Shown here piece after piece: positions 2,971 through 58,325 of a stretch of DNA of 64,000 bases. The first letter of the stretch is position 1, and the number at the start of each line of letters is the position of its first letter. This stretch comes from a virus: positions 1-64,000 of the IMG/VR virus record IMGVR_UViG_3300028490_000005. One strand, written 5' to 3'. Both the position numbers and the translations under genes were made by a program. The notes beneath the pieces are model-generated. The model saw only the letters and a program-made list of their open reading frames with translations. It ran no database searches and was not told where the DNA came from.

Positions 2971-3237
2971 ATGGAATTATTAATGATGTATAGAAAAGTA
3001 TCAGCACGTACAAATTCATGGTATGTACTGACTAATTTTTTAAAAATAAAACACGAACTAGAGGTGATACAATATCTGTCAGAAAAATTCGGAGTAATTC
3101 ACCTATACGACAGATGGATAGAACACCCATTCCTCGCAGTACCATACCCAAGAATAGTGTCCACAGTTGCTGAATACGATGCTGGTAGAGGTAAGAATTA
3201 CCAAATTGAATTAAAGAAAATATATGGTGCACTATAA
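2971..3237 (+). CDS. Hypothetical protein
   Basis: GGAG RBS; TAATG coupling to the polymerase gene. Confidence 0.6.
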   Translation: MELLMMYRKVSARTNSWYVLTNFLKIKHELEVIQYLSEKFGVIHLYDRWIEHPFLAVPYPRIVSTVAEYDAGRGKNYQIELKKIYGAL

Positions 3238-4757
3238 TGTATGATTATGAACAATATGAGAAAGTATGGAGAAGTGGTTTTGAATATTTCTGTCGAACAA
3301 GGAATACTGAGACCAATCAAGTCAGGTTTGAAAAAATAGAACCAACTTGGGAATTTTATGAAAATAACCCGAGTGGTGATATGTCATTTGTCCTAGACCC
3401 AACAGTAAAACTTTCCAAACGTGAATTTTCTGATCCAAAGGAAATGAAGCAATTTAAGGGGTTGATGGATTCTTTGGGTAAGGAAGTTTATGGTGGTCAG
3501 GCTCCTGAATATAAACATATCAGGGATAATTTCTTCCAAAGTGGAAAAGTTAATGATATGAGGATTTGGTTCTTGGATATAGAAACTATGAATGATGATC
3601 CGAATGATAAATCATTCCCAGACCCTCAGTTGGCTGAAAAACCTGTATCTCAAATTCAAATTTACGATAACTATACGGATAAGATTATCATTTTAAGTTT
3701 GGATAAAATGAAAGATGAAAGTAAATTTAAACACCACAAGAATCTGATATTCAAACACTATTATGACGAAAAGGATTTATTTAAAGATTTCATTAAATTG
3801 TTGGGTAAATTGAACCCAACAGTTATTACGGCTTGGAATGGGGATTACTTCGACTTTCCATATCTAACAAATAGAGCCATGGGATTGAGTGGCGTAAATT
3901 ATAGGAAGTTATCACCAATATTAAAAGTGAGAGAAATTAAAACGGTTGATGGTCTTAACTATGACTGGGAAGGTATCTTTTTAATTGATATGATGCAAGC
4001 GTATAAAAAGTTTATCCCAAAACCACAAGTATCGTACTCCCTCGATAACATTTCAAAATCTGAACTTGGTATTGGTGAGGGAAAGGTTGATTATGGTGAA
4101 TTTGATGATATAATTGATTTCTATCACGGTGACATCGATAAATTTCTTGAATATTCTATTCAAGATGTTGTGACATTGAAAAAGCTAGAAGACAAATTGA
4201 AATTGATAGAATTAATGCAAATTCTAGCTACAATGATGGGAATTAACATTGATGATTCCATGGGTACAGTGAAGCCATGGGGTCAGTATCTCACAAATCT
4301 AGCAATGAAAAAAGGTATGGTGATGCCATATGATAGAAAATCACATTTAGATAAAACTATTGTCGGTGGGTATGTTCGACACCCTCAAAAGGGGAAACAC
4401 AATTGGTTAGTTTCTATAGATGTTGACTCAATGTACCCACTACTCGGTATGAGAGCATTTAATATGTCCCCAGAGACATATGTAAATGATTATGAATTAC
4501 CTGATGATTTGATGGAAATTAGGCGAAAATATCACACACATGAAGATGAAGAGGTTTATTTAGATGAAAAGGTTTTATCTGAAATTCGGGAAGTCTGTCA
4601 TAAACACGATGTAGCATTCGGTATGAACGCATTTTTCAGGCGAGAACAAGAGGGAATAATTCCAACTATTGTAGCTGACATTTATGCGACGAGAAAGGAA
4701 GCAAAACGTAAAATGCTTGTTTATAACGCTTTAAAGGCAAAATTAGCATCAATTTAA
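3237..4757 (+). CDS. 43A: Family B DNA polymerase, N-terminal part (exonuclease + palm motif A; gp43A)
   Basis: ExoI LDIET, ExoII WNGDYFDFPYL, YSLDNI, ExoIII YSIQDV, motif A SIDVDSMYP; ends just after the first fingers helix (RKEAKRKM). Confidence 0.93.
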   Translation: MYDYEQYEKVWRSGFEYFCRTRNTETNQVRFEKIEPTWEFYENNPSGDMSFVLDPTVKLSKREFSDPKEMKQFKGLMDSLGKEVYGGQAPEYKHIRDNFFQSGKVNDMRIWFLDIETMNDDPNDKSFPDPQLAEKPVSQIQIYDNYTDKIIILSLDKMKDESKFKHHKNLIFKHYYDEKDLFKDFIKLLGKLNPTVITAWNGDYFDFPYLTNRAMGLSGVNYRKLSPILKVREIKTVDGLNYDWEGIFLIDMMQAYKKFIPKPQVSYSLDNISKSELGIGEGKVDYGEFDDIIDFYHGDIDKFLEYSIQDVVTLKKLEDKLKLIELMQILATMMGINIDDSMGTVKPWGQYLTNLAMKKGMVMPYDRKSHLDKTIVGGYVRHPQKGKHNWLVSIDVDSMYPLLGMRAFNMSPETYVNDYELPDDLMEIRRKYHTHEDEEVYLDEKVLSEIREVCHKHDVAFGMNAFFRREQEGIIPTIVADIYATRKEAKRKMLVYNALKAKLASI

Positions 4758-5796: not shown

Positions 5797-6663
5797 AAAA
5801 AATGATACCTAGAGAATCGACTGAAGTTGTGTATTTAGAGGACGCGACTTTCCCAAATCACTTTGGTGCAATTTGGGAAGATAAAAAAGTTATGTTGGTT
5901 AGAAATATGGATATGGGAATAGATGAGGATAATCAAAAATGTTTATTTCAATGGCATACCGATAATATGTGTTTCTTACACATAGGAAGACCAAACACGT
6001 TGAACGAAGCATTAACTGAGTGTGGTCTAGATGAAGTTTTCCAATTTGATACTTTGGTTGAACTAGCAACATGGATGGAATCATGATTAGACCAACAGAT
6101 GAAGAATTGACGAAGGACATACAAAACCTTTCACGGTTCTATTCCCAGAGTGAAATAATGGCTCAATACGATGAGATTGGTATTTCATTAACGGCTCAGG
6201 AGTTTATTACTTTAAAATACCCAGATGGGTTACACGAAAAGGCTTAAAATGACTTACGAACAAATTCTCAATGACATAGCTGAAGAAGCGTTTGAAAAGC
6301 GTTTACATGGTTCTGGTGGGTTATATCAAATTGGTAGAATTCCTAACATTGAAAATTTAGATTATGATTACGTTATTAAAGAACTGGATGAGATTATGGT
6401 AACTCTAGAATCAAATTTTGAGATGGGTGAAATATTTTATGATGATTTCTAATACTACTCCTGGATTGAGTGAAGTATCAAAAGAAGATGCAATATTAGC
6501 ATTATTTACTAGAGGACAATATGTCACTAGGGATAAATGGGATGATGATTATTTCATATATTTAGATGATGGTGCTGTGATGACTACTAAATACAATATT
6601 GAAGTCGAACCAAAATATTTTGCTCACTTTTTACTTGGACAACAATTTTTTATTAGGAATTAA
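5793..6663 (+). other. Run of small coupled hypothetical genes (about 5793-6086, 6083-6247, 6249-6452, 6439-6663)
   Basis: Overlapping start/stop codons; AAAGGCTTAAAATG leader before 6249; 6083-6247 read manually (MIRPTDEELTK...). Confidence 0.5.
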
Positions 6664-6673
6664 ATAACTAAAA
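6658..6673 (+). promoter_or_regulatory. Putative late promoter (TTAAATA)
   Basis: AATTAAATAACTAAAA identical to 32397-32412; resembles T4 late TATAAATA. Confidence 0.55.
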
Positions 6674-6688
6674 TGACAAGGAGAAAGT

Positions 6689-7471
6689 ATGTTAAGCGTT
6701 AAAATTTCTGAAGGCTTGGGGAATCAAATGTTCCAATATGCTTATGCTAAGGCTCTTCAAGTAAGGGGATACGACGTTGTTATAAATTTCCATAATTCTC
6801 GTATGCCACATGGTGGGTTTTCACTAGGTAAATATAAAATAGATTTGAATCCCATCAATCACTTAACACCACATAACATAGTTCATGAGGGTAAGTTATC
6901 ATTCCGAGAAAATCTTTTAAACGTTACTGATGGTAGTGAAATAAGTGGGTATTTTCAATCAGAATTATATTTTAAAAATATCCGAGACACTATTGTTAAT
7001 CAATTTACATTAGATGAATACTCACCATATGCGAAAAATATACAAGCCTTCATAGAAACAAACACTTGTACTTGTTCAATACATATCAGGAGAGGTGATT
7101 ACGCACACCATAAACAACTGAAATTGTTACCCATTGATTATTACAATGACGCAATAGAATATATCAATTCAAAATTTAAAGAAGTGAATTTTTTAGTTTT
7201 TTCAGATGATATATTATTTGCTAAGGGATTTTTGAAAAACCAAAATATCACATTCATTAACAGTACGGAAAAAAGACCACCACATGAAGATATTTATTTG
7301 ATGAGTTTATGTGAACACAATATCATAGCAAATAGTAGTTTTTCTTGGTGGGGTGCGTGGTTGAACTCTAATAAAGATAAATTAGTAATTGCACCAGAAC
7401 ATTGGTTTATTGATGAGTATACACATGAAGAACCAACTGATATAGTATGTAAATCATGGGTGAAGATATAG
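6689..7471 (+). CDS. Alpha-1,2-fucosyltransferase (GT11)
   Basis: GLGNQMFQYA, GYFQSE, HIRRGDY, FSDD, NSSFSWWGAWL motifs. Confidence 0.92.
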   Translation: MLSVKISEGLGNQMFQYAYAKALQVRGYDVVINFHNSRMPHGGFSLGKYKIDLNPINHLTPHNIVHEGKLSFRENLLNVTDGSEISGYFQSELYFKNIRDTIVNQFTLDEYSPYAKNIQAFIETNTCTCSIHIRRGDYAHHKQLKLLPIDYYNDAIEYINSKFKEVNFLVFSDDILFAKGFLKNQNITFINSTEKRPPHEDIYLMSLCEHNIIANSSFSWWGAWLNSNKDKLVIAPEHWFIDEYTHEEPTDIVCKSWVKI

Positions 7472-7520: not shown

Positions 7521-8699
7521 ATGGAGCGATTAATGACATTAGACGAAATATACGAAAAAATAGAAGACGGGTCTATGACCGTCGATGACATCAATACCAT
7601 GGACTTGTCCCACCTCAAGGGAACTAATTTAGACCACATAGAAGGTCGTTCTGCGTATTGGAATACATACCAATTGGCTCTAAAAATTTCAATTAACTCA
7701 TTATATGGTGCACTTGCAAACACTTACTTCTTATTGTTTAATAGGGACGTTGCTGCGTCAATCACAGGAAATGGTAGAATTTTCATTCAAGGTCTTGCAA
7801 ACTATATCAATGACAAACTGAAAAAAGTTCTAAAGTCAAAGAAAGATTTTGTTGTTTACGGAGACACAGATTCAGTTTACTTCACACTCGGTGATCTAGT
7901 AACTAAATTAGATGTAGACACCAATAAAGAAATTCTCGATAAATTGATTAAATTCGATAAGAAATTCCTAGACGTTTGGACCCAAGAATATATAGAAATA
8001 TACGCTGACAACTTCAATGCATTTAATAAGGATCCTATTGGTGCGAAACTTGAAAAGGTCGCGGACAAAGGTATGTTTGTTGCTAAGAAGAAATACGCTC
8101 TAAGAGCAGTTTGGGATGAAGGTGCGATTCTTTTAGATGACCCAAAAATGGCTGTAACTGGTTTAGAAATTGTTAGAAGTTCAACGCCAGCATTTTGTAG
8201 AAAACACCTCAAAGATATGGTTGATGTTATTCTAGATAACGATGCTAAATTTACAATAGATAAATTAACGGGAATTGAAGAATTATTTTTTGAAGCTCCA
8301 ATTCAGGATATAGCTAGAGTTTCTGGTATTGGTTCACTTGCGTATGAGGGTTCAATAGGTAGATACACGAAATGGAAAAATGATAAAACATTAACTGCAC
8401 CAATGAATGTCCGTGCCGCAATGAATTTTAATTTATTTGTACAAGAAACTGGATTAACTAAATACCCTCAAATATTGGATTCAGATAAAATAAAGTATGT
8501 ATTTCTCAAGAAACCAAACACATTGGGTGATGATGTTGTTGCATTCCTAGACGCTGATTTTATCACTGATTCAGGTTTGGAAAAATACATTGATAGAGAG
8601 CGTATGTGGGAAGACTTCTTTATTTCCCCAATGAAAATTATGCTTGAAGCAGTTGGGTATGATTTAAATCAAAACTTTGATATGGAGGAATGGATGTGA
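7521..8699 (+). CDS. 43B: Family B DNA polymerase, C-terminal part (motifs B, C, thumb; gp43B)
   Basis: QLALKISINSLYGA, SITGNGR, YGDTDS, KKKYA, GLEIVRSSTP. Confidence 0.93.
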   Translation: MERLMTLDEIYEKIEDGSMTVDDINTMDLSHLKGTNLDHIEGRSAYWNTYQLALKISINSLYGALANTYFLLFNRDVAASITGNGRIFIQGLANYINDKLKKVLKSKKDFVVYGDTDSVYFTLGDLVTKLDVDTNKEILDKLIKFDKKFLDVWTQEYIEIYADNFNAFNKDPIGAKLEKVADKGMFVAKKKYALRAVWDEGAILLDDPKMAVTGLEIVRSSTPAFCRKHLKDMVDVILDNDAKFTIDKLTGIEELFFEAPIQDIARVSGIGSLAYEGSIGRYTKWKNDKTLTAPMNVRAAMNFNLFVQETGLTKYPQILDSDKIKYVFLKKPNTLGDDVVAFLDADFITDSGLEKYIDRERMWEDFFISPMKIMLEAVGYDLNQNFDMEEWM

Positions 8700-14916: not shown

Positions 14917-15594
14917 ATGAAAACAGAAAACACAGAAAAGGCGTTTGAAATATTAACATCAGAACAATTTAATGAAATACTAGATGCACAAATGGAACTG
15001 AATGTAAAATATTCAGGAGAAAATTGGGCAAAAGATATTCCTGATTCACATATGCTCGCAGCAGCATTTGCGGAACTTGGAGAACTACTTGAATCTGGAC
15101 CAAGAGTTGGGGATTCAGACCTTAATGGTTGGAAATGGTGGAGAGAGAATTTAGACAATGATGATAATAATTTGAAAGTAGAAGCAGTGGACATTATTCA
15201 CTTCACTTTCTCTTCACTTGCTAAAAAATATAACGATATTGATTTATTGAAAAAGCATTACGCTGAATGTTCTAATGCATACAGAACTTCTCCAAATGCA
15301 CAAAGTGATGGTGAATCAACTGGTGTAGTTTATGATTTACTCCTTTCACTTAGTGTGTTCACTGTCACGTGTTTAATTGAAGACTCAGAAAAAGAGCAAC
15401 TTATGGATATGATGGTATTCCTTGTTAATGGTTTGTGTAGATTTTCAAACATGACAGCTGATGAAATGTTCGAGTTATATGGAAAGAAAAATAAACTAAA
15501 TCACAAAAGAGTTGAGGGTGGGTACAAAACTGGGGACTATGAAAAAGTAGATTCAGACGGAAATGAAGATAACGTAAAACTTTTTGAAGATTAA
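14917..15594 (+). CDS. dut: Dimeric all-alpha dUTPase (dUTPase_2)
   Basis: ELGELLE, WKWW, VEAVDIIHF, KNKLNHKR..GY..GDY.K...EDN. Confidence 0.85.
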   Translation: MKTENTEKAFEILTSEQFNEILDAQMELNVKYSGENWAKDIPDSHMLAAAFAELGELLESGPRVGDSDLNGWKWWRENLDNDDNNLKVEAVDIIHFTFSSLAKKYNDIDLLKKHYAECSNAYRTSPNAQSDGESTGVVYDLLLSLSVFTVTCLIEDSEKEQLMDMMVFLVNGLCRFSNMTADEMFELYGKKNKLNHKRVEGGYKTGDYEKVDSDGNEDNVKLFED

Positions 15595-28948: not shown

Positions 28949-29983
28949 ATGACACCAAAATTAATTAAAATGCCATCAATTGCACAATTCAATCAAGTAA
29001 TTAAAGATATCCAACATGATGCTAGATATGCTGGTCAGGACGTAAATGATGAGCCAATATATAACAGAAATGCAAAACTGCCAACGGTTATATTTTTCGG
29101 TTCAGTTAAGCTGCATGGAACAAATGCATCAATTTGTTATGATGGTGAAAACCTTTGGGCACAATCTAAGGGTAGTGTTTTAACCATCGAAAGCGATAAT
29201 TATGGTTTTGCGTCATTTGTTGAAATGAACAAAGAATATTTGACAAGTGAACTTAAGATTATGCGTGACACATTTAATCTTCAAAAGGTTTGTGTGTATG
29301 GTGAGTGGGCTGGTAAGGGTATCCAAAAGGGTGTAGCAATTTCTGAAATCAATAAAACCTTCTTTGCATTTGGTATTAAATTTCTACGATTAAATTCAGA
29401 AGTGTTTGAGTGGGTGCAAAAACCATCAGTTGTCTTAAAGCACTTCAGTGACGGTAACAGAATTCGCTCAATATTCGAATTTGATACATATTACGTTGAA
29501 ATTGATATCAATAACCCAAAAGCTATGCAAAACGACATGATTAAAATCACTGATGGAATTGATAAAATGTGTCCAGTAGCTCGTGATCTTGGTCATATTG
29601 GTCATGGTGAAGGCGTTGTTTGGGTTGGTTGGTATAATGACAATAAGTACAACTTTAAGATCAAAGGACTAAGTCATGCAAATTCTAATGTTAAGACACT
29701 AAAGCCAGTTGATGAAGAAAAGGAAAATGCTAAAATTGCTTTCGCTAACTATGCTACACCAGCATGGAGACTAGAGCAAATGTACAAAGAAACATTCGGT
29801 GAAGGTCAAGGTGATATCAAGAGAACGGGGGAATTCCTTAAAGCTGTTGTATCTGATGTTATGAAGGAAGAGCTACTGAATATGTCAGAAGCTAACCTTG
29901 AGCCAAAAGAAGTTAATGGTATGATTTCTAAAATTGCTAGAACTTGGTTCATGGAGCAGTTAGATAGAGAGGTTCTTGGATGA
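28949..29983 (+). CDS. RNA ligase (Rnl2 family)
   Basis: Motif I KLHGTN, YGEWAG, FAFGI, GEGVVW, FKIKG. Confidence 0.85.
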   Translation: MTPKLIKMPSIAQFNQVIKDIQHDARYAGQDVNDEPIYNRNAKLPTVIFFGSVKLHGTNASICYDGENLWAQSKGSVLTIESDNYGFASFVEMNKEYLTSELKIMRDTFNLQKVCVYGEWAGKGIQKGVAISEINKTFFAFGIKFLRLNSEVFEWVQKPSVVLKHFSDGNRIRSIFEFDTYYVEIDINNPKAMQNDMIKITDGIDKMCPVARDLGHIGHGEGVVWVGWYNDNKYNFKIKGLSHANSNVKTLKPVDEEKENAKIAFANYATPAWRLEQMYKETFGEGQGDIKRTGEFLKAVVSDVMKEELLNMSEANLEPKEVNGMISKIARTWFMEQLDREVLG

Positions 29984-57402: not shown

Positions 57403-57435
57403 TTAAGCTTCTTTTAAGGAAGTTTACGCTATAAT
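57403..57435 (+). promoter_or_regulatory. Promoter of the tmRNA-like RNA
   Basis: TTAAGCTTCTTTTAAGG...GCTATAAT; -10 ends 8 nt before the acceptor stem; no RBS follows. Confidence 0.8.
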
Positions 57436-57443
57436 ATAGATAT

Positions 57444-57692
57444 GCTCCGACTGGTTTGGGGGAAGCATTTAGGCGAAAACCTAGAATAATTAAGGAAAAC
57501 GAGAAAAGTGTTCAGACGGGTTAGTTCCCTTTCTGTCCCCGATTCAAGTTATAATAGATAATTTACTGATTCCCACTGTGGTTTCAGATGAAATGAATCT
57601 GAAGATATGAACTATAAGCTTCAGATAATTTCGGGTTATTTATTGGAATCCTTGCAGTCCCTTTCGTGGTTCGATTCCTCGACGGAGCACCA
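57444..57692 (+). ncRNA. ssrA: Divergent, compact tmRNA-like RNA
   Basis: GCTCCG/CGGAGC acceptor stem + A-CCA; T-arm TCGTGG-TTCGATT-CCTCGA; GG in the D-like loop; internal 10-codon frame with its stop in a hairpin loop. Confidence 0.7.
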
Positions 57693-58325
57693 AAAATTAA
57701 AGGCTAGAAATGAACACTGAAAAACAATATACAATCTTATTTGGTAAGAATAATAACTCAGATAAAATCGAAGTTGGTAGCTTTTATCTTTACTTAACAA
57801 GATTCTTTGTTGAATGGGAAGAATTTCAAAATTGGGGAAGAGAAAGATTTCGCCAAAAGTATTTATCTGAAGGAACGAAACAAAATGAAGCTACTTCTTA
57901 TGAAGGGTTTAGACAACATACTACAGAAGACGATCTTTATTACTTCACTTTAGAAGAAGCAGAAAGAATTTTGAAGAAACTTCGAAAGAAGGCGTTCAAA
58001 ATTAACAAAACACGAAGAGAAGCATTTCGCGATTATAAATATGGTAAAGCTAGAGCGAACGAATTATATGCATATGGTAAAGAGCCGTTCATTGTTAAGA
58101 AAACTAAAATTAAACAATACTTAAAGAAAGGTTAATGTGGAAAAGAAATATTTTGAAAGAAAAGATGGTAAGATTTTCAAACTCGTTTCAATGAAAGTTT
58201 ATGAAAAAGGTTCTGGTTTGGAGAAATGGCAAACTGTTGCTTGGCATGAATCAAATGAAATAGGTTGTTCAACAAACTTCTACAAGGAACTATGTATAAC
58301 TGAATGTGAATATATTTGTAAAGCA

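Follow-up and report, generated by a model that had tools for sequence, protein, structure and literature searches.

The annotations of phages T4 and T5 have for decades listed 'tRNA-like stable RNAs of unknown function'. In the T5 record, RNA1 (T5s03, 144 nt) and RNA2 (T5s06, 125 nt) are both annotated as 'tRNA-like stable RNA with unknown functions', and T4 rnaC and rnaD are further phage RNAs of this kind. RNA2 folds into an acceptor stem, a D-arm, an enlarged middle arm and a T-arm and is present in 436 phage records; among T5-like phages its D and T stems vary in a compensatory manner. The tRNA-like domain (TLD) of transfer-messenger RNA (tmRNA) is another mimic, modelled on the long-variable-arm type of tRNA. 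A tmRNA reduced to its TLD has been recorded in mycobacteriophage DS6A, and TLD-like molecules, chargeable or not, were reported to inhibit tmRNA, perhaps by titrating SmpB (PMC4131195), while 'enigmatic' tRNA introns have been reported in Lak megaphages (Devoto et al. 2019, PMC6784885). Here we describe a 249-nt tRNA-like RNA gene at positions 57444–57692 of a metagenomic phage sequence, the IMG/VR record IMGVR_UViG_3300028490_000005 (82,337 bp, ~53% complete, 34% G+C), the first 64 kb of which are called the window below. A first-pass annotation, made from the letters of the sequence, had taken this element for a minimal tmRNA-like RNA with a non-alanine acceptor stem.

A separately promoted RNA gene with tRNA-like ends

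The genes of the window are densely packed on the + strand, and the element lies, on the same strand, in an ORF-free gap of 335 bp between 57374 and 57710 (ORF, open reading frame). It extends from G1 (57444) to an encoded CCA. Its 6-bp acceptor stem joins GCTCCG (57444–57449) to CGGAGC (57683–57688), with pair probabilities of 0.78–1.0 and a mismatch at 7:66, where A57450 faces A57682; the 3' strand is followed by the discriminator A57689 and the CCA at 57690–57692. The T-arm (57665–57681) carries a TTCGATT loop between stem strands CGTGG (57665–57669) and CCTCG (57677–57681), with a T.T mismatch at 51:63. A scan for this kind of module, requiring a T-loop with T-stem, a 6-bp Watson-Crick acceptor within 800 nt and NCCA, found one site in 82 kb, the element itself, versus 0.01 per random genome of matched dinucleotide composition; it is the only module of acceptor, T-arm and CCA in the record.

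Directly upstream is a phage promoter (57403–57435, + strand), comprising a TTAAG-box pair (57403–57418) and TACGCTATAAT, which includes the -10 hexamer (57430–57435). The 33-nt motif to which it belongs, TTAAGnTTnTTTTAAG-N6-TAYGnTATAAT, has nine copies across the 82 kb, every one of them on the + strand (window positions 15591, 21072, 46904, 47613, 50897, 54152 and 57403; record positions 64925 and 75739). Its -10/discriminator part, GCTATAATATAGA, recurs in the only sister phage that we found, IMGVR_UViG_3300005095_000172, a 140.6-kb record collinear with ours in reverse. Eight of the nine copies lead within ~15–30 nt to a ribosome-binding site (AAAGG or GGAG) and an ATG, and the copy at 57403 is the sole member of the family that leads into an RNA instead. 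Since the TATAAT ends at 57435, 8 nt before G1, transcription is expected to start at 57442–57444, that is, at the first base of the acceptor or 1–2 nt before it. The dedicated promoter proposed in the first-pass annotation is therefore borne out, and strengthened by both the nine-copy family and the spacing to G1. The accompanying remark that no ribosome-binding site is present is not strictly true, as a UAAGGA (57491–57496) sits 11 nt 5' of a GUG at 57508.

Given the rarity of the module, its position at the promoter start and the gap free of ORFs, we take the gene as real: the locus at 57444–57692 is an unannotated, separately promoted tRNA-like RNA gene. The sequence elements that had been listed for it were all found where they had been placed, and the claim of an RNA with tRNA-like ends and no normal anticodon arm is supported. 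This general layout, with an acceptor stem, a T-arm and ACCA, is that of the tRNA-like domain of tmRNA. At the same time, no terminator-like site was seen between the RNA and the next gene, a 141-aa ORF (57710–58135, + strand) with its own ribosome-binding site AAAGG at 57700–57704, which appears to be co-transcribed downstream, and so the RNA is probably cut from a longer transcript.

The locus does not belong to the tmRNA family

Apart from the general layout, the proposed tmRNA identity and function were not borne out. Rfam 15 gave no match at the locus at gathering scores, and no tmRNA, tRNA, group I or Y-RNA model matched a 401-nt stretch around it at E<=10, whereas the same search scores the tmRNA of the sister phage (89493–89978, - strand) at 57.8 bits with RF00023. 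The sister molecule is full-length, with G3.U70, UAUCGACG and UUUCGGACU, and an insertion of ~176 nt. ARAGORN returned nothing in the window in default mode, and in tmRNA mode it made no call at the locus at thresholds from 100% down to 40%; the canonical tmRNA of the sister phage is not called by ARAGORN either. Pair 3:70 is U-A, as had been stated (T57446 with A57686), which means that the RNA is not an alanine acceptor by the G3:U70 rule. The conserved TLD motifs, UCGAC in the D-loop and GGAC before the T-arm, are absent: the element carries ACUGGUUU-GGGGG and GUCCCUUU where the tmRNA consensus and the sister tmRNA carry UAUCGACG and UUUCGGACU.

The features that had suggested a tag-coding interior fared unevenly. 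The frame AAG...GGT TAG would encode KENEKSVQTG, a hydrophilic peptide ending in QTG with no Ala-type resume codon, and the tag of the sister tmRNA is ANNTSYTGALVA. Its stop codon (TAG, 57522–57524) does lie in the loop of a stable hairpin, CAGA-C-GGG/CCC-TT-TCTG (57513–57535, pair probability 0.76–0.85), which in the proposed layout is the analogue of helix 5, but the frame has no upstream boundary and was picked by eye. Likewise, T and A are found at -5 and -4 of AAG 57492, as proposed for a resume signal, but they are two bases in an AT-rich sequence. At the place suggested for pk1, TTTAGG-CGAAAA-CCTAGA (57468–57485) forms a hairpin with a pair probability of ~0.45, but a plain one and no pseudoknot. 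Within the element we also noted that the GUG at 57508–57510, preceded by the UAAGGA, which resembles a Shine-Dalgarno sequence, opens a 17-codon frame (MFRRVSSLSVPDSSYNR) with a stop at 57559–57561; it is an alternative to the tag frame, and neither frame appears to be supported by the sequence.

SmpB is encoded in neither our record nor that of the sister phage, and complementarity of the RNA to the sister tmRNA or to the phage genome gave nothing beyond chance. Having failed the Rfam, ARAGORN, G3.U70, motif, pseudoknot and tag tests, the element is not counted as a member of the tmRNA family. The TLD-only tmRNA of DS6A, sought for a side-by-side comparison, is not annotated in the DS6A record, and no candidate for it was located with confidence.

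Folding of the interior

The sequence following the acceptor 5' strand, the D-region ACTGGTTTGGGGGAAGCA (57450–57467), can be read in two ways. In one, a GG-containing loop, ACTGGTTT (57450–57457), directly follows the acceptor strand, and the 5' strand of a helix 2 occupies 57458–57463 and 57465–57467; GGGGGA (57458–57463) is complementary to TCCCTT (57658–57663), and GCA (57465–57467) to TGC (57653–57655). In the other, which is that of ARAGORN, a small D-arm forms from GTTT (57454–57457) and AAGC (57463–57466) around a GGGGG loop. The downstream partner, TGC-AG-TCCCTT (57653–57663), would accordingly represent either the helix-2 3' strands or, in a cloverleaf, the 3' part of the anticodon stem with the variable loop, and the 5' strand of the hairpin at 57468–57485 serves as the anticodon-stem 5' strand in the ARAGORN model.

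The minimum free energy (MFE) of the whole unconstrained molecule is -64.5 kcal/mol. With the acceptor and T-arm fixed and helix 2 forced, the fold reaches -63.1 kcal/mol, only 1.4 above the MFE, while forcing the ARAGORN cloverleaf gives -50.7 kcal/mol, 13.8 above it. Free and constrained folds alike contain an AU-rich branched arm (57552–57645), with a 13-bp base helix (57552–57564/57633–57645) and hairpins at 57566–57587 and 57590–57632. At the same time, helix 2 has an ensemble pair probability of only ~0.02, because its GGGGG also pairs with UCCCC at 57536–57540, the other competitor being the D-arm-like pairing; the D-arm itself has a probability of 0.001. Forming helix 2 also leaves the proposed resume codon base-paired (57493–57496 with 57649–57652). 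The helix 2 of the first-pass annotation is thus complementary and energetically feasible but not singled out, and the modelled thermodynamics would permit the layout built on it without selecting it.

ARAGORN models an intron-bearing tRNA at the locus

When introns were allowed (-i300), ARAGORN made one call in 82 kb, an 80-nt tRNA-Ser(GGA) with exactly the ends of the element. The model removes a 169-nt 'intron' (57475–57643, + strand) after C32 and places the anticodon GGA at 57645–57647, within a good C-U-GGA-A-U anticodon loop, although the placement of the intron is weak. The call is lost at a threshold of 105%, while 17 of 25 sister-phage tRNAs are still called at 110%. When the acceptor, D region and T-arm were kept and the rest was shuffled, 88 of 400 sequences (22%) were still called as tRNA, versus 1 of 400 once the whole stretch separating the acceptor 5' strand from the T-arm was shuffled, indicating that the D-region pairing is informative while the anticodon stem and the splice site are not. 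The modelled product is also poor as a tRNA, with a 5-nt D-loop, a 3-nt spacer and mismatched acceptor, anticodon and T stems, and as a tRNA-Ser, with a discriminator A and an unpaired 10-nt variable loop in place of a long variable arm.

Neither the group I intron (RF00028) nor any other Rfam family matched at E<=10, and no known intron class fits. Splicing of the archaeal type was set aside, as no RtcB is encoded and no convincing bulge-helix-bulge motif was seen by eye. The first-pass annotation had named splicing to an ordinary tRNA as the outcome that would speak against its own reading; a call on the exact ends was indeed obtained, but a marginal one.

Ancestry of the element

Several parts of the RNA resemble parts of tRNAs. 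Its 5' segment, TCCGACTGGTT--TGGGGGAAGCATT, matches tRNA-Ser(UGA) of the sister phage, a class II tRNA with a long variable arm, across the D-arm and the 5' strand of the anticodon stem at 21 of 24 positions (z = 5.8, 0 of 300 shuffles), and its first 27 nt share 20 of 25 positions with the D-arm region of T5 RNA2 (z = 4.3, p = 0.002). The acceptor resembles GCTCTGT/ACGGAGT-ACCA of an odd 70-nt tRNA-Arg(TCG) of the sister phage (112936–113005, - strand), in which the D-arm is degenerate, and the last 30 nt (57663–57692) are identical at 27 positions to the 3' end of a tRNA-Arg of Klebsiella phage KP12. These likenesses make the RNA look tRNA-derived, with a D region of the long-variable-arm type.

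We also built a covariance model from the RNA2 genes of five T5-like phages. It did not detect the element, the best overlapping scores being ~2 bits (E>2), and membership of the RNA2 family is rejected on this result; the element is analogous to the RNA2 family and not a member of it. The RNA2 architecture is compatible with the ARAGORN model and with the 5' alignment, but the D-arm on which it would depend has the low ensemble probability given above.

Structured RNAs of the sister phage

The tmRNA, the 25 tRNAs and the other RNA genes of the sister phage lie in a part of the genome outside the coverage of our record, and because of the synteny between the two phages, ours probably has a canonical tmRNA as well. 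The sister phage further encodes a circularly permuted YrlA-like RNA (L026:2412–2530, - strand; 36.6 bits, below the gathering score of 69), adjoining a 529-aa TROVE (Ro60-type) ORF at ~94.5 kb, and a 130-nt tRNA-like RNA (99072–99201, - strand) that carries ~45 nt of cargo and whose D-arm, GCGGAACTGGTAGACGC, is of the Leu type also present in T5 RNA1. A T4 Rnl1-type RNA ligase is encoded at 6141–6713 (- strand), and our phage has an ORF of the RNA_ligase family at window positions 28949–29983; together the two ligases suggest a capacity for tRNA repair. With its tmRNA, YrlA-like RNA and Ro60, Leu-type RNA and Rnl1 ligase, this lineage seems to invest heavily in tRNA-like RNAs. The YrlA/Y_RNA models (RF02553) gave no match to the element itself at E<=10.

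Of the sister tRNA genes, 20 of 25 encode CCA, as the element does. There is a tRNA cluster at 112–115 kb, and about half of the 25 tRNAs have the unusual T-loop ATCGTWA and not TTCRANY. The 99072–99201 RNA is mislabelled by ARAGORN -i as a tRNA-Phe with a 41-nt intron. Between tRNA-Leu and tRNA-Asn is a structured-looking gap of ~900 nt (99308–100203, - strand) with an orphan T-arm, GGTTCGATTCC, at 99625 and no Rfam match. Outside the RNA genes, the DNA polymerase of our phage is spread over two ORFs (window 3237–4757 and 7521–8699) that are 2.7 kb apart, with small ORFs between them, an arrangement kept in the sister phage that may reflect either a split gene or introns.

Discussion

The RNA is neither a member of the tmRNA family nor a convincing interrupted tRNA. 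We favour the reading, at not quite an even chance, that it is a tRNA mimic without a decoding role, of the kind represented by T5 RNA1 and RNA2, and derived from a class II tRNA. In such a scheme, host RNA polymerase would initiate at the TTAAG-box/TATAAT promoter, at or 1–2 nt before G57444, the transcript would continue into the downstream ORFs, and ordinary tRNA end-processing would free the tRNA-like part down to its encoded CCA. The freed and presumably stable RNA would retain the 'top half' of a tRNA, that is, the acceptor stem, the T-arm and a GG-containing D region able to form an elbow; its 5' part would look like the D-arm portion of class II tRNAs, and ~185 nt of folded 'cargo' would replace the anticodon arm. 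Such an RNA could not read codons, and would instead most probably act by occupying a host or phage protein that binds to the top half of tRNAs or to the CCA end; candidates would be a defence nuclease that targets tRNAs, a factor of tRNA processing or surveillance, or SmpB/EF-Tu.

A number of results weigh against this reading. Searching the locus by blastn against 50,697 phage records gave no homologue, and neither did exact and gapped patterns, four in IMG/VR and two in GTDB genomes, with the consequence that neither covariation nor purifying selection can be called on in its support. Relatives of neighbouring genes brought little more: the 141-aa ORF returned only itself from IMG/VR and 5.8 billion proteins; the SLT-like neighbour led to one sister phage in IMG/VR, in which the RNA is absent, and to one 1.3-kb fragment in metagenomes; and relatives of the DNA polymerase were found only in two short contigs covering another region. 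The interval of the sister phage that is syntenic with the locus lacks the element, so it could be a recent relic. To these points are added the negative RNA2 covariance model and the overall folding energy, which is not unusually stable (z = -1.0). No binding partner was identified and the neighbouring ORFs appear to be uninformative orphans; the product of the 141-aa ORF has no Pfam or PHROG family, Atlas matches below 0.85 and an AlphaFold pLDDT of 49.

Several of these results are what would be expected if the element were a decaying, tRNA-derived relic within the 57710 operon's 5' leader, with no function in trans and at most an RNase P/RNase E processing site for the 57710 mRNA. Such a relic would fit the absence of a terminator before ORF 57710, the mismatched acceptor (7:66) and T stems, the unremarkable fold, and the lack of homologues for an element sitting in a ~5-kb block (about 53–58 kb) that is missing from the sister phage. 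Yet we consider it unlikely, given that the 5' end of the acceptor coincides with the predicted transcription start, that a perfect NCCA has been kept, and that 250 nt of non-coding sequence persist in a compact genome where the other eight leaders of the promoter family measure ~15–30 nt. Removal of 57475–57643 from the anticodon loop, by an unrecognised ribozyme or by cleavage and a phage RNA ligase, would give instead an 80-nt decoding tRNA with anticodon GGA. The single call on the exact ends with its good anticodon loop, the failure of all but one of the fully shuffled interiors, the resemblance of the 3' half (AATCCTTG...GTGGTTCGATTCC) to that of the sister tRNA-Phe, the RNA ligases of the lineage and the precedent of the Lak introns (PMC6784885) are consistent with such a tRNA. 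We nevertheless regard it as slightly less likely still, because the call survives 22% of partial shuffles and is lost at 105%, no intron class or RtcB was found, the cloverleaf lies 13.8 kcal/mol above the MFE, the product, with its 5-nt D-loop, would be missing the long variable arm expected of a tRNA-Ser, and an intron-less counterpart was not found. Least probable of all is that the element copies the 3' end of a host tRNA in the manner of an attP site and serves integration, a reading to which we give almost no credence: the 3' 30 nt do look like tRNA-Arg/Thr 3' ends, but the promoter start coincides exactly with a matching acceptor 5' strand, neither record encodes a tyrosine integrase, and the sister genome has the look of a large virulent phage, given its 25 tRNAs, tmRNA and RNA ligases.

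The remaining explanations keep a link with ribosome rescue. A reduced tmRNA analogue might template KENEKSVQTG in stalled ribosomes, charged perhaps by a synthetase that ignores anticodons, or might serve as an anti-tmRNA decoy that titrates SmpB. Such an analogue would account for the TLD layout, for the likeness of the D-loop ACUGGUUU to ACUUGGUAU of the sister tmRNA, for a helix-2 fold just 1.4 kcal/mol above the MFE and for a stop codon in the loop of a stable hairpin, and it has a precedent in the DS6A TLD-only tmRNA and the inhibition by TLD-like molecules (PMC4131195). It is improbable all the same. Rfam finds nothing where the sister tmRNA scores 57.8 bits, ARAGORN stays negative at 40% thresholds, pair 3:70 is U-A, the UCGAC and GGAC motifs and any pseudoknot are missing, the resume codon is base-paired in the very fold that the analogue needs, the helix spans 9–13 bp versus the long P2 of tmRNAs, and the tag frame has no independent support; a decoy would moreover sit awkwardly in a lineage that already has a canonical tmRNA. 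Very improbable, in our estimate, is a second, non-alanine rescue RNA that would work beside the canonical tmRNA and add a hydrophilic, non-degron peptide to stalled phage proteins, and just as doubtful is the accompanying idea that its long helix could imitate a class II variable arm and thereby allow charging by a synthetase that ignores anticodons, SerRS or LeuRS.

Weighed against these alternatives, the non-decoding mimic remains the reading that we prefer, with a small share of the probability assigned to none of them. As an orphan without comparative support, the element has its value as an experimental candidate and not as a discovery. Metagenomic phages appear to hold many more tRNA-like stable RNAs, and this one is favourable for experiments, being one gene under a consensus promoter of its own, with a predicted transcription start at the mature 5' end, an encoded CCA and a large insert. 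Should it be true that such RNAs decoy tRNA-directed defences or rescue factors, they would form a new class of RNA-based counter-defence.

Comparison with known tRNA-like RNAs

With tmRNA (RF00023) the element shares an acceptor, a T-arm and ACCA, a D-loop without a clear D-stem, possibly a long helix that departs from the body immediately ahead of the T-arm, and a stop-codon hairpin inside. It differs in its length (249 nt versus 486 nt in the sister tmRNA), in having U3-A70 and not G3.U70, in its atypical tag, and in having no covariance-model or ARAGORN match, no TLD motifs and no pseudoknots. Like the intron-containing tRNAs of Lak phages and the bacterial group I tRNA introns, it has tRNA-like ends interrupted in the region of the anticodon loop and is detected by ARAGORN/tRNAscan-type tools only when introns are allowed; unlike them, it has neither a group I core nor an intron-less allele, and the tRNA that it would yield is poor in quality and inconsistent in isotype. 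YrlA and Y RNAs are tRNA mimics too, and the lineage of our phage encodes a Ro60-type (TROVE) protein, but the element is not circularly permuted and has free tRNA-like ends with CCA.

The closest parallel is with T5 RNA1 and RNA2. In contrast to both, the element has an encoded CCA and a promoter of its own and lies outside any tRNA cluster; its insert is three times longer (~185 versus ~55 nt), and it has no relatives, whereas RNA2 occurs in hundreds of records. At the same time, all three are phage-encoded and located among small early genes or tRNA genes, and the element, on its modelled architecture, would share with the T5 RNAs a closing stem of the acceptor type, a G-rich D region, a canonical T-arm and an enlarged middle that is not an anticodon arm.

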